44,492 nt of DNA from Verrucomicrobiota bacterium (GTDB lineage Bacteria > Verrucomicrobiota > Verrucomicrobiia > Limisphaerales > JBEHZA01): contig JBEHZA010000002.1 of assembly GCA_048497895.1 (NCBI GenBank), positions 1 through 44,492 of the forward strand, in the 5' to 3' direction. Positions 21,158 through 24,038 of this stretch are shown here, piece by piece. A program made the position numbers and the translations under genes. The notes under the pieces are model-generated. The model searched no databases. It was not told where the DNA came from and was given only the letters and a program-made list of their open reading frames with translations. Every line of letters starts with the position of its first letter. Position 1 is the first letter of the stretch.

Positions 21158-22627
21158 ATGGAACCTATAGCTGATATCGCACTGATCGGTCTGGCCGTAA
21201 TGGGTCAGAACCTCATCTTGAACATGAACGACCACGGTTACACCGTGGTGGCTTACAACCGCACGACGGCCAAAGTGGACGAATTTTTGGCCAAAGAAGC
21301 CAAAGGGACGAAAGTCGTTGGCGCGCACTCCATTGAAGAGATGGTTGGGCTGCTCAAAAAGCCCCGTCGCGTCATGATGCTGGTCAAAGCCGGCAAACCG
21401 GTGGATGAATTCATCGACCAACTCATCCCTCACTTGGAAGCGGGTGACATTATCATCGACGGTGGCAACTCCCTCTTTGATGACACCAACCGCCGTCAGA
21501 AGTATGTGGAAAGCAAAGGCTTGCTCTACATTGGCACGGGCGTTTCCGGTGGTGAAGAAGGCGCTCGTCGCGGTCCTTCGATCATGCCTGGTGGCTCTCC
21601 GGCAGCCTGGCCGCACGTGAAAGATATTTTCCAGGCGGTTTCCGCTAAAGTCGATGGCGGTGCTCCCTGCTGCGATTGGGTCGGCGAACAAGGCGCGGGT
21701 CACTACGTGAAGATGGTGCATAACGGCATCGAGTACGGTGACATGCAGCTCATCTGCGAAGCCTACAACATCATGAAGAACGGCCTCGGCATGAGCGCCG
21801 ACGAGATGCACGAAGTGTTCTCCGAATGGAACAAGGGCGATCTCGACAGCTACCTGATCGAAATCAGCCGCGACATTCTCGGCACCAAAGATACTGACGG
21901 AGCGCCGTTGGTGGACAAAATTCTCGACACGGCCGGCCAAAAAGGCACCGGCAAATGGACCGTCATTAACTCGCAGGAACTCGGCATCCCCATCACTTTG
22001 ATGGCTGAAGCCGTGTATGCCCGCTGCGTTTCCGCGTTGAAAGAAGAACGCGTGAAAGCCGCCCGCAAACTCAAAGGCCCGCGTCCCGCCATTGGCGCTG
22101 CGAACAAGCCGGAAACCAAGAAAGCCTTCATCGAAGACATCAAGAGCGCGCTCTACGCCTCCAAGATCGTCAGCTATGCTCAGGGCTACATGCTCATGCG
22201 CGCCGCGGCCAAGGAATACAACTGGAACCTGAATTACGGCGGTATCGCCCTCATGTGGCGCGGCGGCTGCATCATCCGTTCCCGTTTCCTCGGCAAGATC
22301 AAGGACGCTTACGACGGCAACCCGAAACTGTCCAACCTCATGCTGGACGATTATTTCCGTGGCGAAATCAAGAAGTCGCAGAAGGGCTGGCGCAATGTCG
22401 TGGCCACGGCAGCCAAAAAAGGCATCCCGGTGCCTGCTTTTAGCACGGCGCTGTCGTTCTACGATCAATACCGCAACGCGGTGTTGCCGGCGAACCTGCT
22501 CCAGGCGCAACGTGATTACTTCGGCGCGCACACCTACGAACGCGTGGACAAACCGCGCGGCGAATTCTTCCACACCAACTGGACCGGCCGTGGTGGTGAC
22601 GTTTCGTCCAGCACGTACAACGTCTGA
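21158..22627 (+). CDS. gnd: NADP-dependent 6-phosphogluconate dehydrogenase, decarboxylating
   Basis: GLAVMG, DGGN, VSGGEEGA, MVHNGIEYGDMQ, QKGTGKW, QAQRDYFGAHTY. Confidence 0.98.
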   Translation: MEPIADIALIGLAVMGQNLILNMNDHGYTVVAYNRTTAKVDEFLAKEAKGTKVVGAHSIEEMVGLLKKPRRVMMLVKAGKPVDEFIDQLIPHLEAGDIIIDGGNSLFDDTNRRQKYVESKGLLYIGTGVSGGEEGARRGPSIMPGGSPAAWPHVKDIFQAVSAKVDGGAPCCDWVGEQGAGHYVKMVHNGIEYGDMQLICEAYNIMKNGLGMSADEMHEVFSEWNKGDLDSYLIEISRDILGTKDTDGAPLVDKILDTAGQKGTGKWTVINSQELGIPITLMAEAVYARCVSALKEERVKAARKLKGPRPAIGAANKPETKKAFIEDIKSALYASKIVSYAQGYMLMRAAAKEYNWNLNYGGIALMWRGGCIIRSRFLGKIKDAYDGNPKLSNLMLDDYFRGEIKKSQKGWRNVVATAAKKGIPVPAFSTALSFYDQYRNAVLPANLLQAQRDYFGAHTYERVDKPRGEFFHTNWTGRGGDVSSSTYNV

Positions 22628-22630
22628 TTC

Positions 22631-22697
22631 AATTGCGAATTGGCGATTGCGGATTGCGGATTTAACTCCCGCCGCAATCGCCAATTCCAACGAAACT
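22631..22697 (+). repeat. Left arm of inverted repeats around the four-helix-bundle gene (7-mer array plus local hairpin)
   Basis: AATTGCG AATTGGC GATTGCG GATTGCG GATT (22631-22662). 22638-22652 is the exact reverse complement of 22672-22686; CAACGAAACT lies at 22688-22697. Confidence 0.9.
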
Positions 22698-22706
22698 CAG
22701 TAAAAA

Positions 22707-23069
22707 ATGAATGCGGCGGAATTCAAGAACCGGACCAAGACCTATGCCTGCCGGGTCGTTCGGGTCGTCAATTCTCTCCCGCATTCTTTGGCAGGCGATT
22801 ATTTCGGCCGACAACTACTCCGAAGTGCAAGTTCCGTAGCTGCCAATTATCACGCCTCCTGCCGGGCCAAGTCGCGCGCCGATTTCATTTCCAAAATGAA
22901 TACCGTTGAAGAAGAATGTGACGAATCCCTCTTCTGGATGGAAATGTTGGTCGATAATGAACTCGTCAAGCCGAACAAACTTTCCGGTTTGATGGATGAA
23001 GGCAGTCAGATTTTAGCGTTGGTTGTCGCCTCGGCGAAAACCGCGCGCAGCAACAAATCAGTTAACTAA
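22707..23069 (+). CDS. Four helix bundle protein (23S rRNA IVP / TIGR02436-like family)
   Basis: QLLRSASSVAANY...RAKSRADFISK...EECDESLFWME...LMDEG; 120 aa. Confidence 0.92.
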   Translation: MNAAEFKNRTKTYACRVVRVVNSLPHSLAGDYFGRQLLRSASSVAANYHASCRAKSRADFISKMNTVEEECDESLFWMEMLVDNELVKPNKLSGLMDEGSQILALVVASAKTARSNKSVN

Positions 23070-23098
23070 GATAAACCATAACTCAGATTGCGCCCGGA

Positions 23099-23159
23099 AG
23101 TTTCGTTGCCCACCCGCACGTAGCCAATCCGCAATCCGCAATCGCCAATCCGCAATCGC
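23099..23159 (+). repeat. Right arm of inverted repeats (AATCCGC/AATCGCC 7-mer array)
   Basis: 23126-23156 is the reverse complement of 22632-22662 at 30/31 positions; AGTTTCGTTG (23099-23108) is the exact reverse complement of 22688-22697. Confidence 0.9.
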
Positions 23160-24038
23160 ATGTCAGATCCCGCTCAAGTTCTACGTGACTTCAAGCCCTC
23201 CAAAGAGTTCTTCGTCGGCATTGATTCCGACGGTTGTATTTTCGATAGCATGGAGATCAAGCACCAGGAGTGCTTCACGCCCATGTTCATCAAACATTTT
23301 CACCTGCAAGCGGTGAGCAAATACGCCCGTGAAACCTGGGCGTTTGTGAATCTTTACTCCAAGACCCGTGGGGCGAACCGTTTCCCCGCACTCGTCCGGG
23401 CCTTGAATCTGTTACGTGAACGCTCACAGGTAAATGCCCGCGGTGTCACTATCCCTGACACCAAGGCACTGGATGAATGGATCACCCGCGAAACCAAGCT
23501 CGGCAATGCCACGCTGGCCGCTGAAGTCAACCGCGGCAATAAGGGTCTGGAGCAGGTCAAAGTCTGGTCGGACGCTGTGAATGCGACGATTGAAGACCTC
23601 GTGCATGGGGTGCCCCCCTTCCCGCTCGTGCCCGAGAGCCTCGCAAAATTGAATCAATTCGCGGATGCGATGTGCATTTCCCAAACTCCGGTGGATGCCT
23701 TGCAACGGGAATGGTCCGAACACGGCATCGAGAAATTTGTTAAGATCATTGCTGGTCAGGAAATGGGCACCAAGACCGAGCATTTGAAGTTCGCCGCCAA
23801 AGATAAATACGCGCCGAATAAAATTCTCATGATCGGTGACGCTCCCGGTGACTTCAAAGCCGCCAAATCCAATGGCGCGCTGTTCTTCCCGATTAATCCA
23901 GGCAAAGAAGAAGCCTCCTGGGAACGGCTGCATAACGAAGCTCTGGATCGTTTCTTCAAAGGGACTTACGCCGGCGATTACGAAAAGACACTCGTTCAGG
24001 AATTCGACGCCTGCCTCCCGGAACACCCGCATTGGTAA
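23160..24038 (+). CDS. HAD-superfamily hydrolase
   Basis: Motif I GIDSDG, motif II ISQT, motif III K (GTK), motif IV MIGDAPGD. Confidence 0.88.
   Translation: MSDPAQVLRDFKPSKEFFVGIDSDGCIFDSMEIKHQECFTPMFIKHFHLQAVSKYARETWAFVNLYSKTRGANRFPALVRALNLLRERSQVNARGVTIPDTKALDEWITRETKLGNATLAAEVNRGNKGLEQVKVWSDAVNATIEDLVHGVPPFPLVPESLAKLNQFADAMCISQTPVDALQREWSEHGIEKFVKIIAGQEMGTKTEHLKFAAKDKYAPNKILMIGDAPGDFKAAKSNGALFFPINPGKEEASWERLHNEALDRFFKGTYAGDYEKTLVQEFDACLPEHPHW

Follow-up and report, generated by a model that had tools for sequence, protein, structure and literature searches.

A four-helix-bundle gene bracketed by inverted heptamer arrays between gnd and a HAD-family hydrolase gene: a candidate IVS-type cassette whose arms may be matched to its own protein

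In the window (the whole 44,492-nt stretch of DNA analysed), a small gene for a four-helix-bundle (4HB) protein lies between gnd and a HAD-family hydrolase gene and is bracketed by complementary arrays of tandem heptamers. We read this unit as a cassette of the intervening sequence (IVS) type, with arms that are specific to its lineage and form sites matched to its own protein; judging from the sequence comparisons below, we give this explanation a probability of about 0.6. In the mechanism that we propose, the design of the S23p-bearing 23S rRNA IVS would be used in an operon spacer: a gene with no promoter of its own encodes a protein of the S23p/Avd fold and has on either side a terminal inverted repeat of ~4-5 tandem heptamers. 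The cassette would be transcribed together with gnd, and its arms would form a 36-bp stem in the RNA that buries the start region of the HAD gene. RNase III would then cut this stem as it does in rRNA IVSs, releasing the 4HB message and freeing the HAD start. The arms would also be recognition sites of the cassette's own protein, the same site standing inverted at both ends by analogy with transposon ends, and ~five units per arm would fit the pentameric ring known for the fold. The action of the protein on the arms might serve mobility, protection against cleavage or autoregulation.

The gnd–HAD cassette and its protein

An inverted-repeat search delimited the outer arms at 22627-22662 and 23126-23161 (36 nt, 92% complementary, spacing 463 nt), and Tandem Repeats Finder returned period 7 in both of them, with 4.6 copies at 22631-22662 and 4.7 copies at 23125-23157 (Table 1). 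A preliminary description of this DNA had reported a 31-nt core, 22632-22662 against 23126-23156, with 30/31 nt paired, and the alignment agrees, containing a single mismatch. The same description placed this core 4 nt past the gnd stop and 3 nt ahead of the HAD ATG. Both distances are correct: the gnd stop codon, TGA, has its last base at 22627, and the HAD ATG begins at 23160. The further claim that the cassette exactly fills the gap of 532 nt separating gnd from HAD holds in its coordinates, and the 36-nt arms even overlap the last gnd base and the HAD start codon. Thus the final base of gnd is already paired within the 5' arm, and the last two bases of the 3' arm are the first two of the HAD ATG, which puts the HAD translation start region inside the arm. 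The alignment score of the window arms was 57; in a null in which flanks of different cassettes were paired, the median was 18 and the 99th percentile 30.

Table 1. Features of the gnd–cassette–HAD locus, in window positions.
Feature	Position	Strand	Evidence and remarks
gnd (6-phosphogluconate dehydrogenase)	21158..22627	+	ORF list; PF00393 453.9 bits, PF03446 167.7 bits; upstream, co-directional
5' arm	22627..22662	+	~4.6 tandem heptamers, unit ~GGATTGC; sense strand G-rich, C-poor
Local hairpin	22637..22687	+	22637-22652 pairs with 22672-22687, 16 nt, 100%; alternative to the long-range stem
Inner 10-bp pair, left half	22688..22697	+	perfect with 23099-23108; within the MFE fold
4HB protein gene, 120 aa	22707..23069	+	TIGR02436 / PF05635; S23p / Avd fold
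Inner 10-bp pair, right half	23099..23108	+	inverted-repeat search
3' arm	23126..23161	+	~4.7 tandem heptamers, unit ~GCAATCC; C-rich
HAD-family hydrolase gene	23160..24038	+	ORF list; PF13419 28 bits; downstream, co-directional

The second, nested pair that had been described is present as a perfect 10 bp (22688-22697/23099-23108), but it is not a class-wide feature, since inward extension exceeded the 99th percentile of the null in 3/99 cassettes. Other extras are not class-wide either: among 99 cassettes, with 5 expected, outward or inward stem extension was found in 4 and 5, and a copy of the upstream gene end inside the cassette in 9. A local hairpin next to the 5' arm, which in the window competes with the long-range stem, is uncommon in the class: 8/100 cassettes have a comparable one. 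No T run follows the hairpin at 22637-22687 and no terminator was called there. Rfam gave no family match in 22000-23800 at E values up to 1, and ORFs, profiles and Rfam together site this copy between gnd and HAD, not inside a 23S rRNA helix.

The assignment of the 120-aa protein to the 23S_rRNA_IVP family (TIGR02436), made from the sequence alone in the preliminary description, was upheld by scores above the curated HMM cut-offs for both TIGR02436 (69.5 bits, cut-off 24) and PF05635 (47.4 bits, cut-off 33.8). Its sequence matches PDB 2RLD (E 1.9e-14), a structure with five chains, and its AlphaFold2 model has four helices (pLDDT 97.7). A Foldseek search with this model returned 2RLD (TM 0.88), 2GSC (TM 0.80-0.89), Avd 4DWL (TM 0.74) and the Avd chain of 8UB7 (TM 0.81). 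The predicted fold is a four-helix bundle like that of the solved TIGR02436/PF05635 members. Xcc0516, from the same family, is cited in PMC4990558 as a homopentameric ring. The 4HB protein was the only ORF family match inside the cassette, and the element holds no transposase.

Arms across the family and in known elements

We scored flank complementarity around other TIGR02436 genes against a null of mismatched partners, in which one cassette's flank is set against another cassette's flank. Among 140 evaluable genes from the same order, 100 lay above the 99th percentile of this null and 116 above the 95th; 24 of the 40 that fell short of the 99th percentile also fell short of the 95th, and the 40 include a paralog from the window genome (L001, score 20). 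Across ~ten phyla, 71/78 family genes were above the 95th percentile of that set's own null and 49/78 above its 99th, as counted from the listed scores; this broad set was seeded by a 12-sequence alignment of one subfamily (motif A[VIA]S[IV]..N[IL]AE), which is not the window's own. Isolates with cassettes in this set include Adhaeretor mobilis HG15A2 (L190, arm score 63), Pseudoxanthomonas wuyuanensis (L213, 56) and Thiohalocapsa halophila (L195, 44), and Bacteroides thetaiotaomicron also has a match to the family. None of the 40 cross-phylum loci tested for location in rRNA was found there. The proposal that the stem-enclosed IVS design is used outside rRNA is therefore supported well beyond the window, complementary flanks being the rule for the family (100/140; 71/78). 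By this measure of complementarity, the stem-bracketed design around this gene family is general and extends over many bacterial phyla. We found no prior description of such a cassette in the literature searched, which treats IVSs as a feature of rRNA and states no rule that copies outside rRNA have lineage-specific heptamer arms.

The best repeat period was 7 in 74 of 100 cassettes, 8 in 20 and another value in 6. The repeat unit varies from cassette to cassette, and the median length of the paired arms, in units, is 4.6 for the order set and 4.7 for the broad one. Genomes of the same order carry up to 14 copies of the family. The preliminary description had suggested that paralogs in the window genome be inspected for complementary 7-mer arms of their own: four of five good paralogs have distinct, mutually complementary arms of the heptamer type, but those of the fifth (L001) are weak. 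Arms with inward-reading stop codons in all three frames were also in excess over shuffles (52/200, shuffle mean 23.7, maximum 33; 53/118, shuffle mean 16.3, maximum 26), with a mean number of frames with an inward stop of 1.55 in the order set versus 1.50 in shuffles. We rejected inward stops as a feature of the arms, because tandem repeats alone give such an all-or-none pattern.

Heptamer arrays scattered through the genome independently of these genes had been named beforehand as evidence against the cassette, and they do occur in part. Besides the window's two arms, 10 solo tandem arrays were listed and about eight were examined; but both inverted pairs enclose family genes. In the 5.05-Mb assembly, 2/330 loosely defined period-7 arrays had an inverted partner 100-1100 nt away, and both enclose TIGR02436 genes. 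Arrays of period 7 are not over-represented genome-wide (12, compared to 11 to 77 for periods 5 to 11). One solo array (C158) adjoins a gene that neighbours a full cassette in G018, with different units, and another (C173) lies ~940 nt from a matching flank.

In the 23S rRNA IVSs of Coxiella burnetii, Leptospira and others, as in the window, a gene of this same family is looped out by a long inverted-repeat stem, and the sizes are similar (~430-530 nt). The available text of PMC4990558 describes for Coxiella a terminal stem of 28 bp, in which RNase III cuts at the first repeat, as well as tandem heptamers of variable copy number at the 5' end before the S23p start; the window cassette shares tandem heptamers in its terminal region (4.6/4.7 copies). 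The rRNA IVSs differ in that they sit in rRNA, whereas the window copy lies between protein-coding genes and its putative excision would cut an mRNA. Avd, the accessory protein of diversity-generating retroelements (DGRs), has the fold of the window protein (TM scores above). One study (bioRxiv 10.1101/2023.10.23.563531, as far as its available text goes) describes Avd as a pentameric barrel with positive charge that acts together with RNA, and looked through DGR sequences for stem-loops that Avd might bind. DGRs differ in having a reverse transcriptase and template and variable repeats; none of these stands beside the 4HB gene, the genome's RVT_1 matches being confined to contigs C182 and C569 and the window lying on C2.

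Another likeness is to the REP/RAYT systems, in which a small gene, for an IS200-like tyrosine transposase, is placed between inverted repeats thought to be its own substrates. The scan that finds cassettes also picked up seven IS200/RAYT-like genes flanked by inverted repeats in the window genome, four confirmed by HMM and three assigned by sequence likeness only. RAYT flanks are without tandem repeats, whereas the arms of 4HB cassettes are tandem heptamers; the catalytic fold of RAYT is established, whereas no catalytic residues are known in the 4HB protein; and REPs have one sequence per genome, whereas each 4HB cassette has its own unit. The Correia elements of Neisseria are miniature inverted-repeat elements that are co-transcribed and cut by RNase III as hairpins in operon transcripts. 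They thus resemble the cassette, if it is indeed co-transcribed, in having terminal inverted repeats inside operon transcripts. They differ from it in being non-coding, in sharing one common consensus and in having target-site duplications, which were not found around the cassettes. The cassette likewise departs from DDE-type transposons and MITEs: it shows no target-site duplication, no transposase and no set of identical copies, the five copies in the window genome having arms that differ from each other. Finally, intergenic arrays of TAACTGA in Beggiatoaceae, Cyanobacteria and Bacteroidetes, and of GGGAATC in Xanthomonas (70-75 convergent pairs), are similar to the arms in consisting of 7-nt units in short gaps near start codons, sometimes as inverted pairs. 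They differ in having a single unit per genome and no linked gene family, and the searched text of the two reports (PMC4679880, PMC4692102) makes no mention of S23p, 23S or four-helix proteins.

Insertion sites, placement and RNA fold

If the cassette was inserted, relatives should include empty sites, and the gnd-HAD junction had been singled out for this comparison. HAD homologues were present in 21/40 genomes of the same order, with gnd directly upstream in nine. In four of these nine loci the two genes overlap or lie 0-3 nt apart, so that junctions without the cassette do exist in same-order relatives. Two other loci have a solo tandem array right before the HAD ATG, two have a hairpin of ~100 nt, and one (G025) has a 337-nt remnant in which the heptamer arms are retained and the 4HB frame is truncated. 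At a second junction, that of thrC and aspartate kinase, paralog L001 lies inside in the window genome; among four relatives that keep the two genes adjacent, three have a gap of 2-20 nt and no 4HB gene. On the evidence of these junctions, the gnd-HAD unit is a discrete insertion. Since one cassette type is found in unrelated contexts and sites are filled or empty among relatives, such insertion has happened repeatedly.

The compared genomes belong to different families within one order and some cassette-bearing contigs may be bin contaminants; consequently, insertion ages are not readable from taxonomy. In a tree of the HAD proteins, 11/19 inner branches were open, and so poorly resolved a tree does not settle whether the G025 remnant and the window cassette go back to one insertion. 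Target-site duplications were not found in a search for direct repeats outside the arms, which exceeded the 95th percentile of the null in 6/99 cassettes (5 expected); the window cassette scored 10 versus a null median of 10. Within genomes, 9/433 cassette pairs reached an identity of at least 60%. Recent mobility is thus not evident from these comparisons. An apparent insertion hot spot (L005, L030, L054, L056, L057) was set aside: these loci look like multi-copy DUF1553/DUF1501 gene pairs, recognised by eye, and are therefore not evidence for a single junction hit repeatedly.

The upstream neighbour is co-directional with the cassette in 76/95 cases. Median distances are 1 nt from the upstream stop to the beginning of the 5' arm and 3 nt from the end of the 3' arm to the start of a gene read in the same direction. 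As judged by these distances, the cassette directly adjoins the stop codon of an upstream gene with its own orientation. Neither a sigma-70-like promoter nor a terminator was called within the cassette. Folding of the locus, another check suggested at the outset, gave the expected long-range stem in both the MFE and the centroid fold; the 601-nt RNA had a z score of -4.24 and none of 20 shuffles folded equally well. The genome encodes RNase III and, by analogy with the rRNA IVSs, the predicted stem is likely a substrate of this enzyme. In 24 public sequencing runs, of which two are on record as RNA and a third is a guess, each run held at most 0.07 of the locus's sampled words, and these small shares most likely reflect conserved gnd sequence.

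Arm conservation, competing readings and wider meaning

The sequence of the arms follows the identity of the protein. In non-syntenic pairs at 70-80% protein identity, 9/17 had common arms (score 28 or more), compared to ~0.1% of unrelated pairs, and matches per shorter arm reached 0.78 for pairs at 75% protein identity or above versus 0.34 for unrelated ones. The nearest relative of the window protein (L126, 62.7% identity) lies in another context and has the identical repeat unit. Related cassette pairs show dN/dS values of 0.03-0.19 and synonymous differences of 0.53-0.77 per site, yet their arms are identical at up to 38/40 and 39/40 positions; in one pair (L035/L058), an arm mismatch is common to both members. 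From these comparisons, the arms are lineage-specific and travel and evolve jointly with the protein gene, and arms and protein are both under purifying selection. Conservation of the arms together with the protein, and beyond that of synonymous sites, leans towards arms matched to the protein, with the caveat that joint inheritance of gene and arms would alone yield a correlation between them. The preliminary description had left two alternatives, an mRNA module excised by RNase III and a mobile unit without transposase whose protein recognises the 7-mer. Between these, the sequence evidence leans to arms matched to the protein.

Were the cassette purely an RNA-processing module, the arms would only make a stem for RNase III, the protein would be unrelated to the repeats and it is the pairing that would be under selection. 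This is what one might expect from the IVS precedent, where the cut is mapped in the stem (PMC4990558, available text), from the strength of the predicted long-range stem, from the 80% co-orientation with the upstream gene and from the RNase III gene in the genome. A stem maintained by RNA pairing alone is, however, disfavoured by the arm mismatches, which show no excess of G:U over A:C: on the sense strand, the order set has 87 mismatches of G:T plus T:G and 116 of A:C plus C:A, and the broad set has 47 and 48. Moreover, the arm sequence itself is conserved despite saturated synonymous sites, including the mismatch shared by L035 and L058, and a substrate of RNase III needs neither tandem heptamers nor a length of ~5 units. 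We consider this explanation unlikely.

The protein might instead act on its own repeats as an RNA-binding, immobile and domesticated regulator that sets flanking expression, here that of HAD, the cassette being retained because the host operon would be misregulated without the protein. Such a role is consistent with the strong purifying selection that acts on the proteins (dN/dS as above), with synteny retained in several genomes, with the old age of nearly all within-genome copies (the 9/433 pairs at 60% identity), with the position of the HAD start inside an arm and with the way in which arms adjoin stops and starts. It is difficult to reconcile, however, with one cassette type in unrelated contexts, with sites filled or empty between relatives and with the very different genes that neighbour the cassettes, and we judge it improbable. 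There is little room for a third possibility, that the inverted arrays were made once at insertion (for example by fold-back or template-switch) and are now a functionless relic. The missing G:U bias would suit DNA-level copies decaying by mutation, and arms are weak or absent in some copies (the 40/140 below the 99th percentile of the null), but arm conservation between related cassettes is far above that of synonymous sites, and in the decayed G025 copy it is the gene that is truncated while the arms are retained. The idea that a small gene merely happens to lie among generic intergenic heptamer repeats, for which one could cite the solo arrays in this genome and those of Beggiatoaceae, Cyanobacteria, Bacteroidetes and Xanthomonas (PMC4679880, PMC4692102, available text), is rejected by the controls: the window arms far exceed the mismatched-partner null (57 versus a 99th percentile of 30), both inverted heptamer pairs of the genome enclose TIGR02436 genes, period-7 arrays are not over-represented and the pattern recurs across phyla.

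We therefore return to the cassette with arms matched to its own protein. The same bracketed design recurs in many phyla, so that the rRNA IVS looks like a single example of a far broader class of elements. A broader reading, which we offer only tentatively and regard as doubtful when all its parts are taken jointly, is that S23p/Avd-fold proteins and heptamer arrays form pan-bacterial, self-contained mini-elements with a protein-to-repeat 'code'. Each pentamer would read ~five copies of its own 7-nt unit, inverted at both ends of the gene, and the 23S rRNA IVS would be a copy that landed in rRNA. Genes of the GxxExxY type (PD-(D/E)XK) would be a sister class with units of ~10 nt, and the solo arrays of Cyanobacteria, Bacteroidetes, Beggiatoaceae and Xanthomonas would represent either cassette footprints or non-autonomous elements derived from cassettes.

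To our knowledge, the purpose of the 23S rRNA IVS and of S23p has been open since the early 1990s, and the meaning of intergenic heptamer arrays for even longer. If the rule holds, IVSs and heptamer arrays would be one kind of element, common (up to 14 copies per genome) and present in many phyla. The rule predicts that the proteins bind their cognate repeats, that RNase III leaves RNA ends inside the arms and that a gene starting in an arm is affected. It also bears on annotation. Family genes wedged in operons have been assigned a functional link with the genes beside them, Cas-associated genes being one example (PMC3936711, in its available text); such operon-embedded genes may simply be inserted cassettes, not functional partners. 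If true, small proteins each matched to their own short repeat would be of interest as orthogonal nucleic-acid-binding parts.

The gnd-HAD cassette and its protein

The cassette between gnd and HAD is real (coordinates in the table). Both outer arms have period 7, with 4.6 and 4.7 copies of the unit (Tandem Repeats Finder), and they enclose a four-helix-bundle (4HB) gene. The gene ends agree with the preliminary description, according to which the cassette fills the gnd-HAD gap, and the repeat finder recovered the perfect 10-bp pair that had been noticed inside the arms. Folding of 22600-23200 as RNA, as had been proposed, retained the outer stem in the minimum-energy structure and in the centroid alike; the fold, at -199.1 kcal/mol (z = -4.24), was more stable than shuffled sequences, which averaged -168.9 kcal/mol and of which 0 of 20 were as good. 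The local 16-bp hairpin is a competitor of this long-range stem. No sigma-70-like promoter or terminator was called within the cassette, and no Rfam family matched the cassette region. The 3' arm ends on the first two bases (AT) of the HAD ATG; consequently, the initiation region of HAD would be buried once the stem formed and, we infer, released if the stem were cut.

Features of the window cassette and of repeat-bearing loci elsewhere in the window genome (C, contig; L, locus)
Feature	Position	Partner	Remarks
Outer arms	22627-22662	23126-23161	36 nt, 92% complementary, 463 nt between; repeat finder
Inner perfect pair	22688-22697	23099-23108	10 bp; repeat finder
Local perfect hairpin	22637-22652	22672-22687	16 bp; repeat finder
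4HB ORF	22707-23069		120 aa; TIGR02436 69.5 bits, PF05635 47.4 bits, both over cut-off
gnd end	22627		ORF list
HAD-family gene start	23160		ORF list
Echo of gnd end	22598-22617	23097-23122	imperfect direct repeat
Armed GxxExxY locus L250	C1:16900-17750
Armed GxxExxY locus L251	C228
Armed GxxExxY locus L252	C124
Armed GxxExxY locus L253	C378
Armed GxxExxY locus L254	C4:15150-15900
Armed GxxExxY locus	C173:2944-3282
Armed GxxExxY locus	C367:4073-4420
DUF559 gene L255	C492:2750-3480
IS200/RAYT-like loci L256-L259	C23, C20, C287, C432
IS200/RAYT-like loci	C59, C380, C585
Solo array	C158:507-534
Solo array	C173:8833-8857
Solo array	C87:7194-7223
Solo array	C211:560-587
Solo array	C291:8-35
Solo array	C105:3-28

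An AlphaFold2 model of the 4HB protein (pLDDT 97.7) has four helices. Its nearest solved folds are BT_0352, annotated 'S23 ribosomal protein family' (2RLD, TM 0.88), and Xcc0516 (2GSC, TM 0.80-0.89); the modelled fold is also like that of Avd, the accessory protein of diversity-generating retroelements (4DWL, TM 0.74), and of the Avd chains of the retroelement ribonucleoprotein (8UB7, TM 0.81). Both Xcc0516, according to a citation in the available text of PMC4990558, and Avd, according to that of bioRxiv 10.1101/2023.10.23.563531, are reported to form pentamers. The match between about five units per arm and the five-fold ring of a pentamer is only a lead.

Insertion at two junctions and generality of the arms

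We compared the gnd-HAD junction with that of relatives. Among 40 same-order genomes, all from separate families, 21 had an HAD homologue, and gnd lay directly upstream in 9 of those 21 loci. In four of the nine (L012, L013, L018 and L020), gnd and HAD overlap or stand 2-3 nt apart with no cassette, which provides the empty site that the preliminary description had suggested seeking. L021 and L026 have a hairpin of about 100 nt in the junction, and L016 and L024, that is, 2 of the 8 relatives without a cassette, carry a solo tandem array right before the HAD ATG, with units of 7 and 8 nt, respectively. In the ninth locus (L011, genome G025), 337 nt separate the two genes, and this spacer has heptamer arms whose unit is related to, but differs from, that of the window cassette; it also contains a truncated 4HB frame, about 60 residues of which aligned, with a full-length G025 copy of matching unit at another site as the best hit. 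On an HAD tree, the G025 and window insertions were compatible with a common origin as well as with separate ones. A second junction, thrC-aspartate kinase, is filled in the window genome by a weak-armed paralog (L001); four relatives keep this adjacency, three of them with a 2-20-nt gap and no 4HB gene. These comparisons show that the window cassette is an insertion between gnd and HAD. In two bins, a second aspartate kinase copy lies on a short contig (G002:C182 and G018:C197) and resembles that of the window genome (81-90% identity) more closely than the bin's main copy does; both contigs carry cassettes and may have entered their bins as contamination from a closer relative. Since some small cassette-bearing contigs are possibly contaminants of their bins, taxonomy does not date the insertions. 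The end of gnd in the window is echoed just inside the 3' arm as two 10-nt blocks (90% identity, spacing 6 nt wider in the second copy), and by eye the G025 remnant similarly echoes the end of the gnd beside it. Echoes of this kind do not characterise the class (9 of 99 cassettes vs 5 expected).

Of 41 same-order genomes, 30 had TIGR02436 matches, as many as 14 in a single genome. Among the matches listed (33 more lie outside them), and with one duplicate removed and 7 partial, contig-edge or stop-containing entries left out prior to counting, there were 144 cassettes, 140 of which had sufficient flank for scoring. The arm score came from aligning a cassette's 5' flank with its reverse-complemented 3' flank, and the null used 3' flanks from other genomes' cassettes. 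The median score was 38 vs 18 for the null, with 116/140 above the null 95th percentile (24) and 100/140 above the 99th (30). Among the latter 100, the best period was 7 in 74, 8 in 20, 6 in 3, 9 in 2 and 12 in 1; the median arm was 34 nt and the median whole cassette 493 nt, the 3' arm began a median of 1 nt past the 4HB stop, and the inward-reading strand was G-rich in 90. Paired arms in this order set had a median length of 4.6 units. A broad set of 80 loci, seeded from one subfamily of 4HB proteins, covered Verrucomicrobiota, Planctomycetota, Bacteroidota, Acidobacteriota, Armatimonadota, Synergistota, Bacillota and others, as well as Alpha-, Beta- and Gammaproteobacteria. Here 71 of 78 evaluable loci exceeded the 95th percentile of their own null; counted from the loci listed, 59/78 scored >30, 49/78 exceeded the null 99th percentile of 34, and period 7 was best in 51 of the 59. 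None of the 40 broad-set loci tested for rRNA location lay within rRNA. The complementary-arm design is the rule for the TIGR02436 family, and the earlier proposal of a stem-enclosed design, like that of 23S rRNA intervening sequences (IVS), in a protein-coding context was right and, on these counts (100/140 and 71/78), general.

Several variants were seen. A Planctomycetota MAG record (L206) has arms of about 140 nt with about 20 heptamer units (score 189), where 4-5 units are usual. In one protein clade (L045, L046, L047, L075, L094, L124, L131, L115 and L122) the best arm period is usually 8 nt, not 7; L045-L047 and the related L044 have one extra residue between helices 2 and 3 in a 31-sequence protein alignment. 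The closest within-genome pairs are L050/L100 (G020) and L038/L059 (G010), with 96.8% and 88.8% protein identity; arms were not detectable at L050 (score 16) or L038 (score 18), and this type is possibly an armless subtype, duplicated more recently.

The upstream neighbour was co-directional in 76/95 cassettes, and the 5' arm then started a median of 1 nt past its stop (interquartile range -4 to 8), with the stop codon within the array in many cases. By arrangement of upstream and downstream neighbours, the median distance from upstream gene to 5' arm was 1 nt for (+,+) (45 cassettes), -1.5 nt for (+,-) (28), 124 nt for (-,+) (12) and 68 nt for (-,-) (7); in the (+,+) arrangement the 3' arm ended a median of 3 nt ahead of the downstream start. 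Such placement would suit a promoterless gene riding on the upstream transcript. Five unrelated cassettes (L005, L030, L054, L056 and L057) lie between gene pairs that, by eye, resemble the multi-copy DUF1553/DUF1501 type; this common context is probably paralogy.

Pairing and constraint in the arms

If pairing in the sense transcript maintained the stem, G:U should exceed A:C among arm mismatches. The order set had 87 G:U vs 116 A:C mismatches, the broad set 47 vs 48. The absence of a G:U excess would fit a sequence-specific site placed inverted at both ends, like transposon ends, and would also fit a DNA-level copying process. RNase III cutting may nevertheless occur, as it needs only a duplex. 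Among 99 cassettes, neither target-site duplications as a class feature nor complementarity extending past the repeats was found. The cassette was inverted relative to its flanks in 2 of 69 syntenic pairs, both related (L051/L070 and L077/L097), which would be expected from recombination between the inverted arms or from two insertion events.

Arm similarity grew with protein identity, in syntenic and non-syntenic pairs alike. Arms were common to 9 of 17 non-syntenic pairs at 70-80% protein identity vs about 0.1% of unrelated pairs, pair counts that include kin, are not independent and so overstate the number of events. The nearest relative of the window cassette (L126, 62.7% protein identity) lies in another gene context and has the identical unit. 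Related pairs had dN/dS of 0.03-0.19, with 53-77% of synonymous sites different and arm identities up to 38/40 and 39/40; one pair (L035/L058) has a common arm mismatch. Matches per shorter arm were 0.78 at protein identities of at least 75% vs 0.34 in unrelated pairs. This near-identity despite synonymous divergence, together with the latter contrast, argues that the arm sequences themselves are constrained. Within-genome copies are old, only 9 of 433 pairs reaching at least 60% identity.

Other armed genes and known systems

The assembly containing the window (5.05 Mb, 601 contigs, 88% complete) has 5 TIGR02436 genes above cut-off. The expectation that each paralog would have complementary heptamer-type arms held for 4/5, which are flanked by their own, mutually different heptamer-like units, and failed for L001, whose arms are weak only. 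Period-7 arrays are not common in this genome (12 at the threshold used; across periods 5 to 11 the counts range from 11 to 77). Arrays independent of 4HB genes do exist, as solo arrays. Only 2 of 330 loosely defined period-7 arrays had an inverted partner at 100-1100 nt, and both enclose TIGR02436 genes. The solo arrays (7- or 8-nt units; table) occupy contig ends or short gaps between genes, with neither gene nor inverted partner; like those of L016 and L024, they could mark sites from which a cassette was lost.

An unbiased scan for inverted repeats 250-900 nt apart (score at least 40) gave 27 clusters and, among the matches listed (25 of 27), 21 loci: 7 with IS200/RAYT-like genes (4 by HMM; C59, C380 and C585 by sequence likeness only), 5 with GxxExxY genes (TIGR04256, PD-(D/E)XK), 2 with 4HB genes, 1 with a DUF559 gene and 6 with other or unknown content. 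The DUF559 and the 7 IS200/RAYT-like genes each have long non-tandem inverted repeats around them (scores 49-102), which for the latter fits the known REP-RAYT pattern. Inverted arms of tandem 8-11-nt units (scores 28-70) surround 7/7 GxxExxY (TIGR04256/PF13366) genes of the window genome, so tandem-repeat-armed small-gene cassettes are not confined to one protein family. The GxxExxY cassettes, for which no paper was found in the literature searched, constitute a sister design to the 4HB cassettes with heptamer arms.

In the available text of PMC4990558, the Coxiella IVS is a 428-nt element with an RNase III-cut, 28-bp terminal stem and three tandem heptamers, strain-variable in copy number, ahead of the S23p start. 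Its S23p-family gene lies inside rRNA, whereas the window cassette occupies an operon spacer, and an RNase III cut there is predicted only. PMC4679880 and PMC4692102 describe arrays of heptamers between genes, among them inverted pairs in Xanthomonas; the terms S23, 23S, intervening and four helix are absent from their available text, and the window arms, in contrast, enclose a 4HB gene. Genes of the 4HB family wedged within cas operons were interpreted as Cas-linked in the portion of PMC3936711 available. Open-access PMC and bioRxiv full text held no description of heptamer-armed 4HB cassettes outside rRNA. The IVS design itself was known; new, within the literature searched, are its occurrence outside rRNA and the family-wide rule of lineage-specific heptamer arms, for which putative processing of the stem and putative recognition of the arms by the protein would be the steps we propose.
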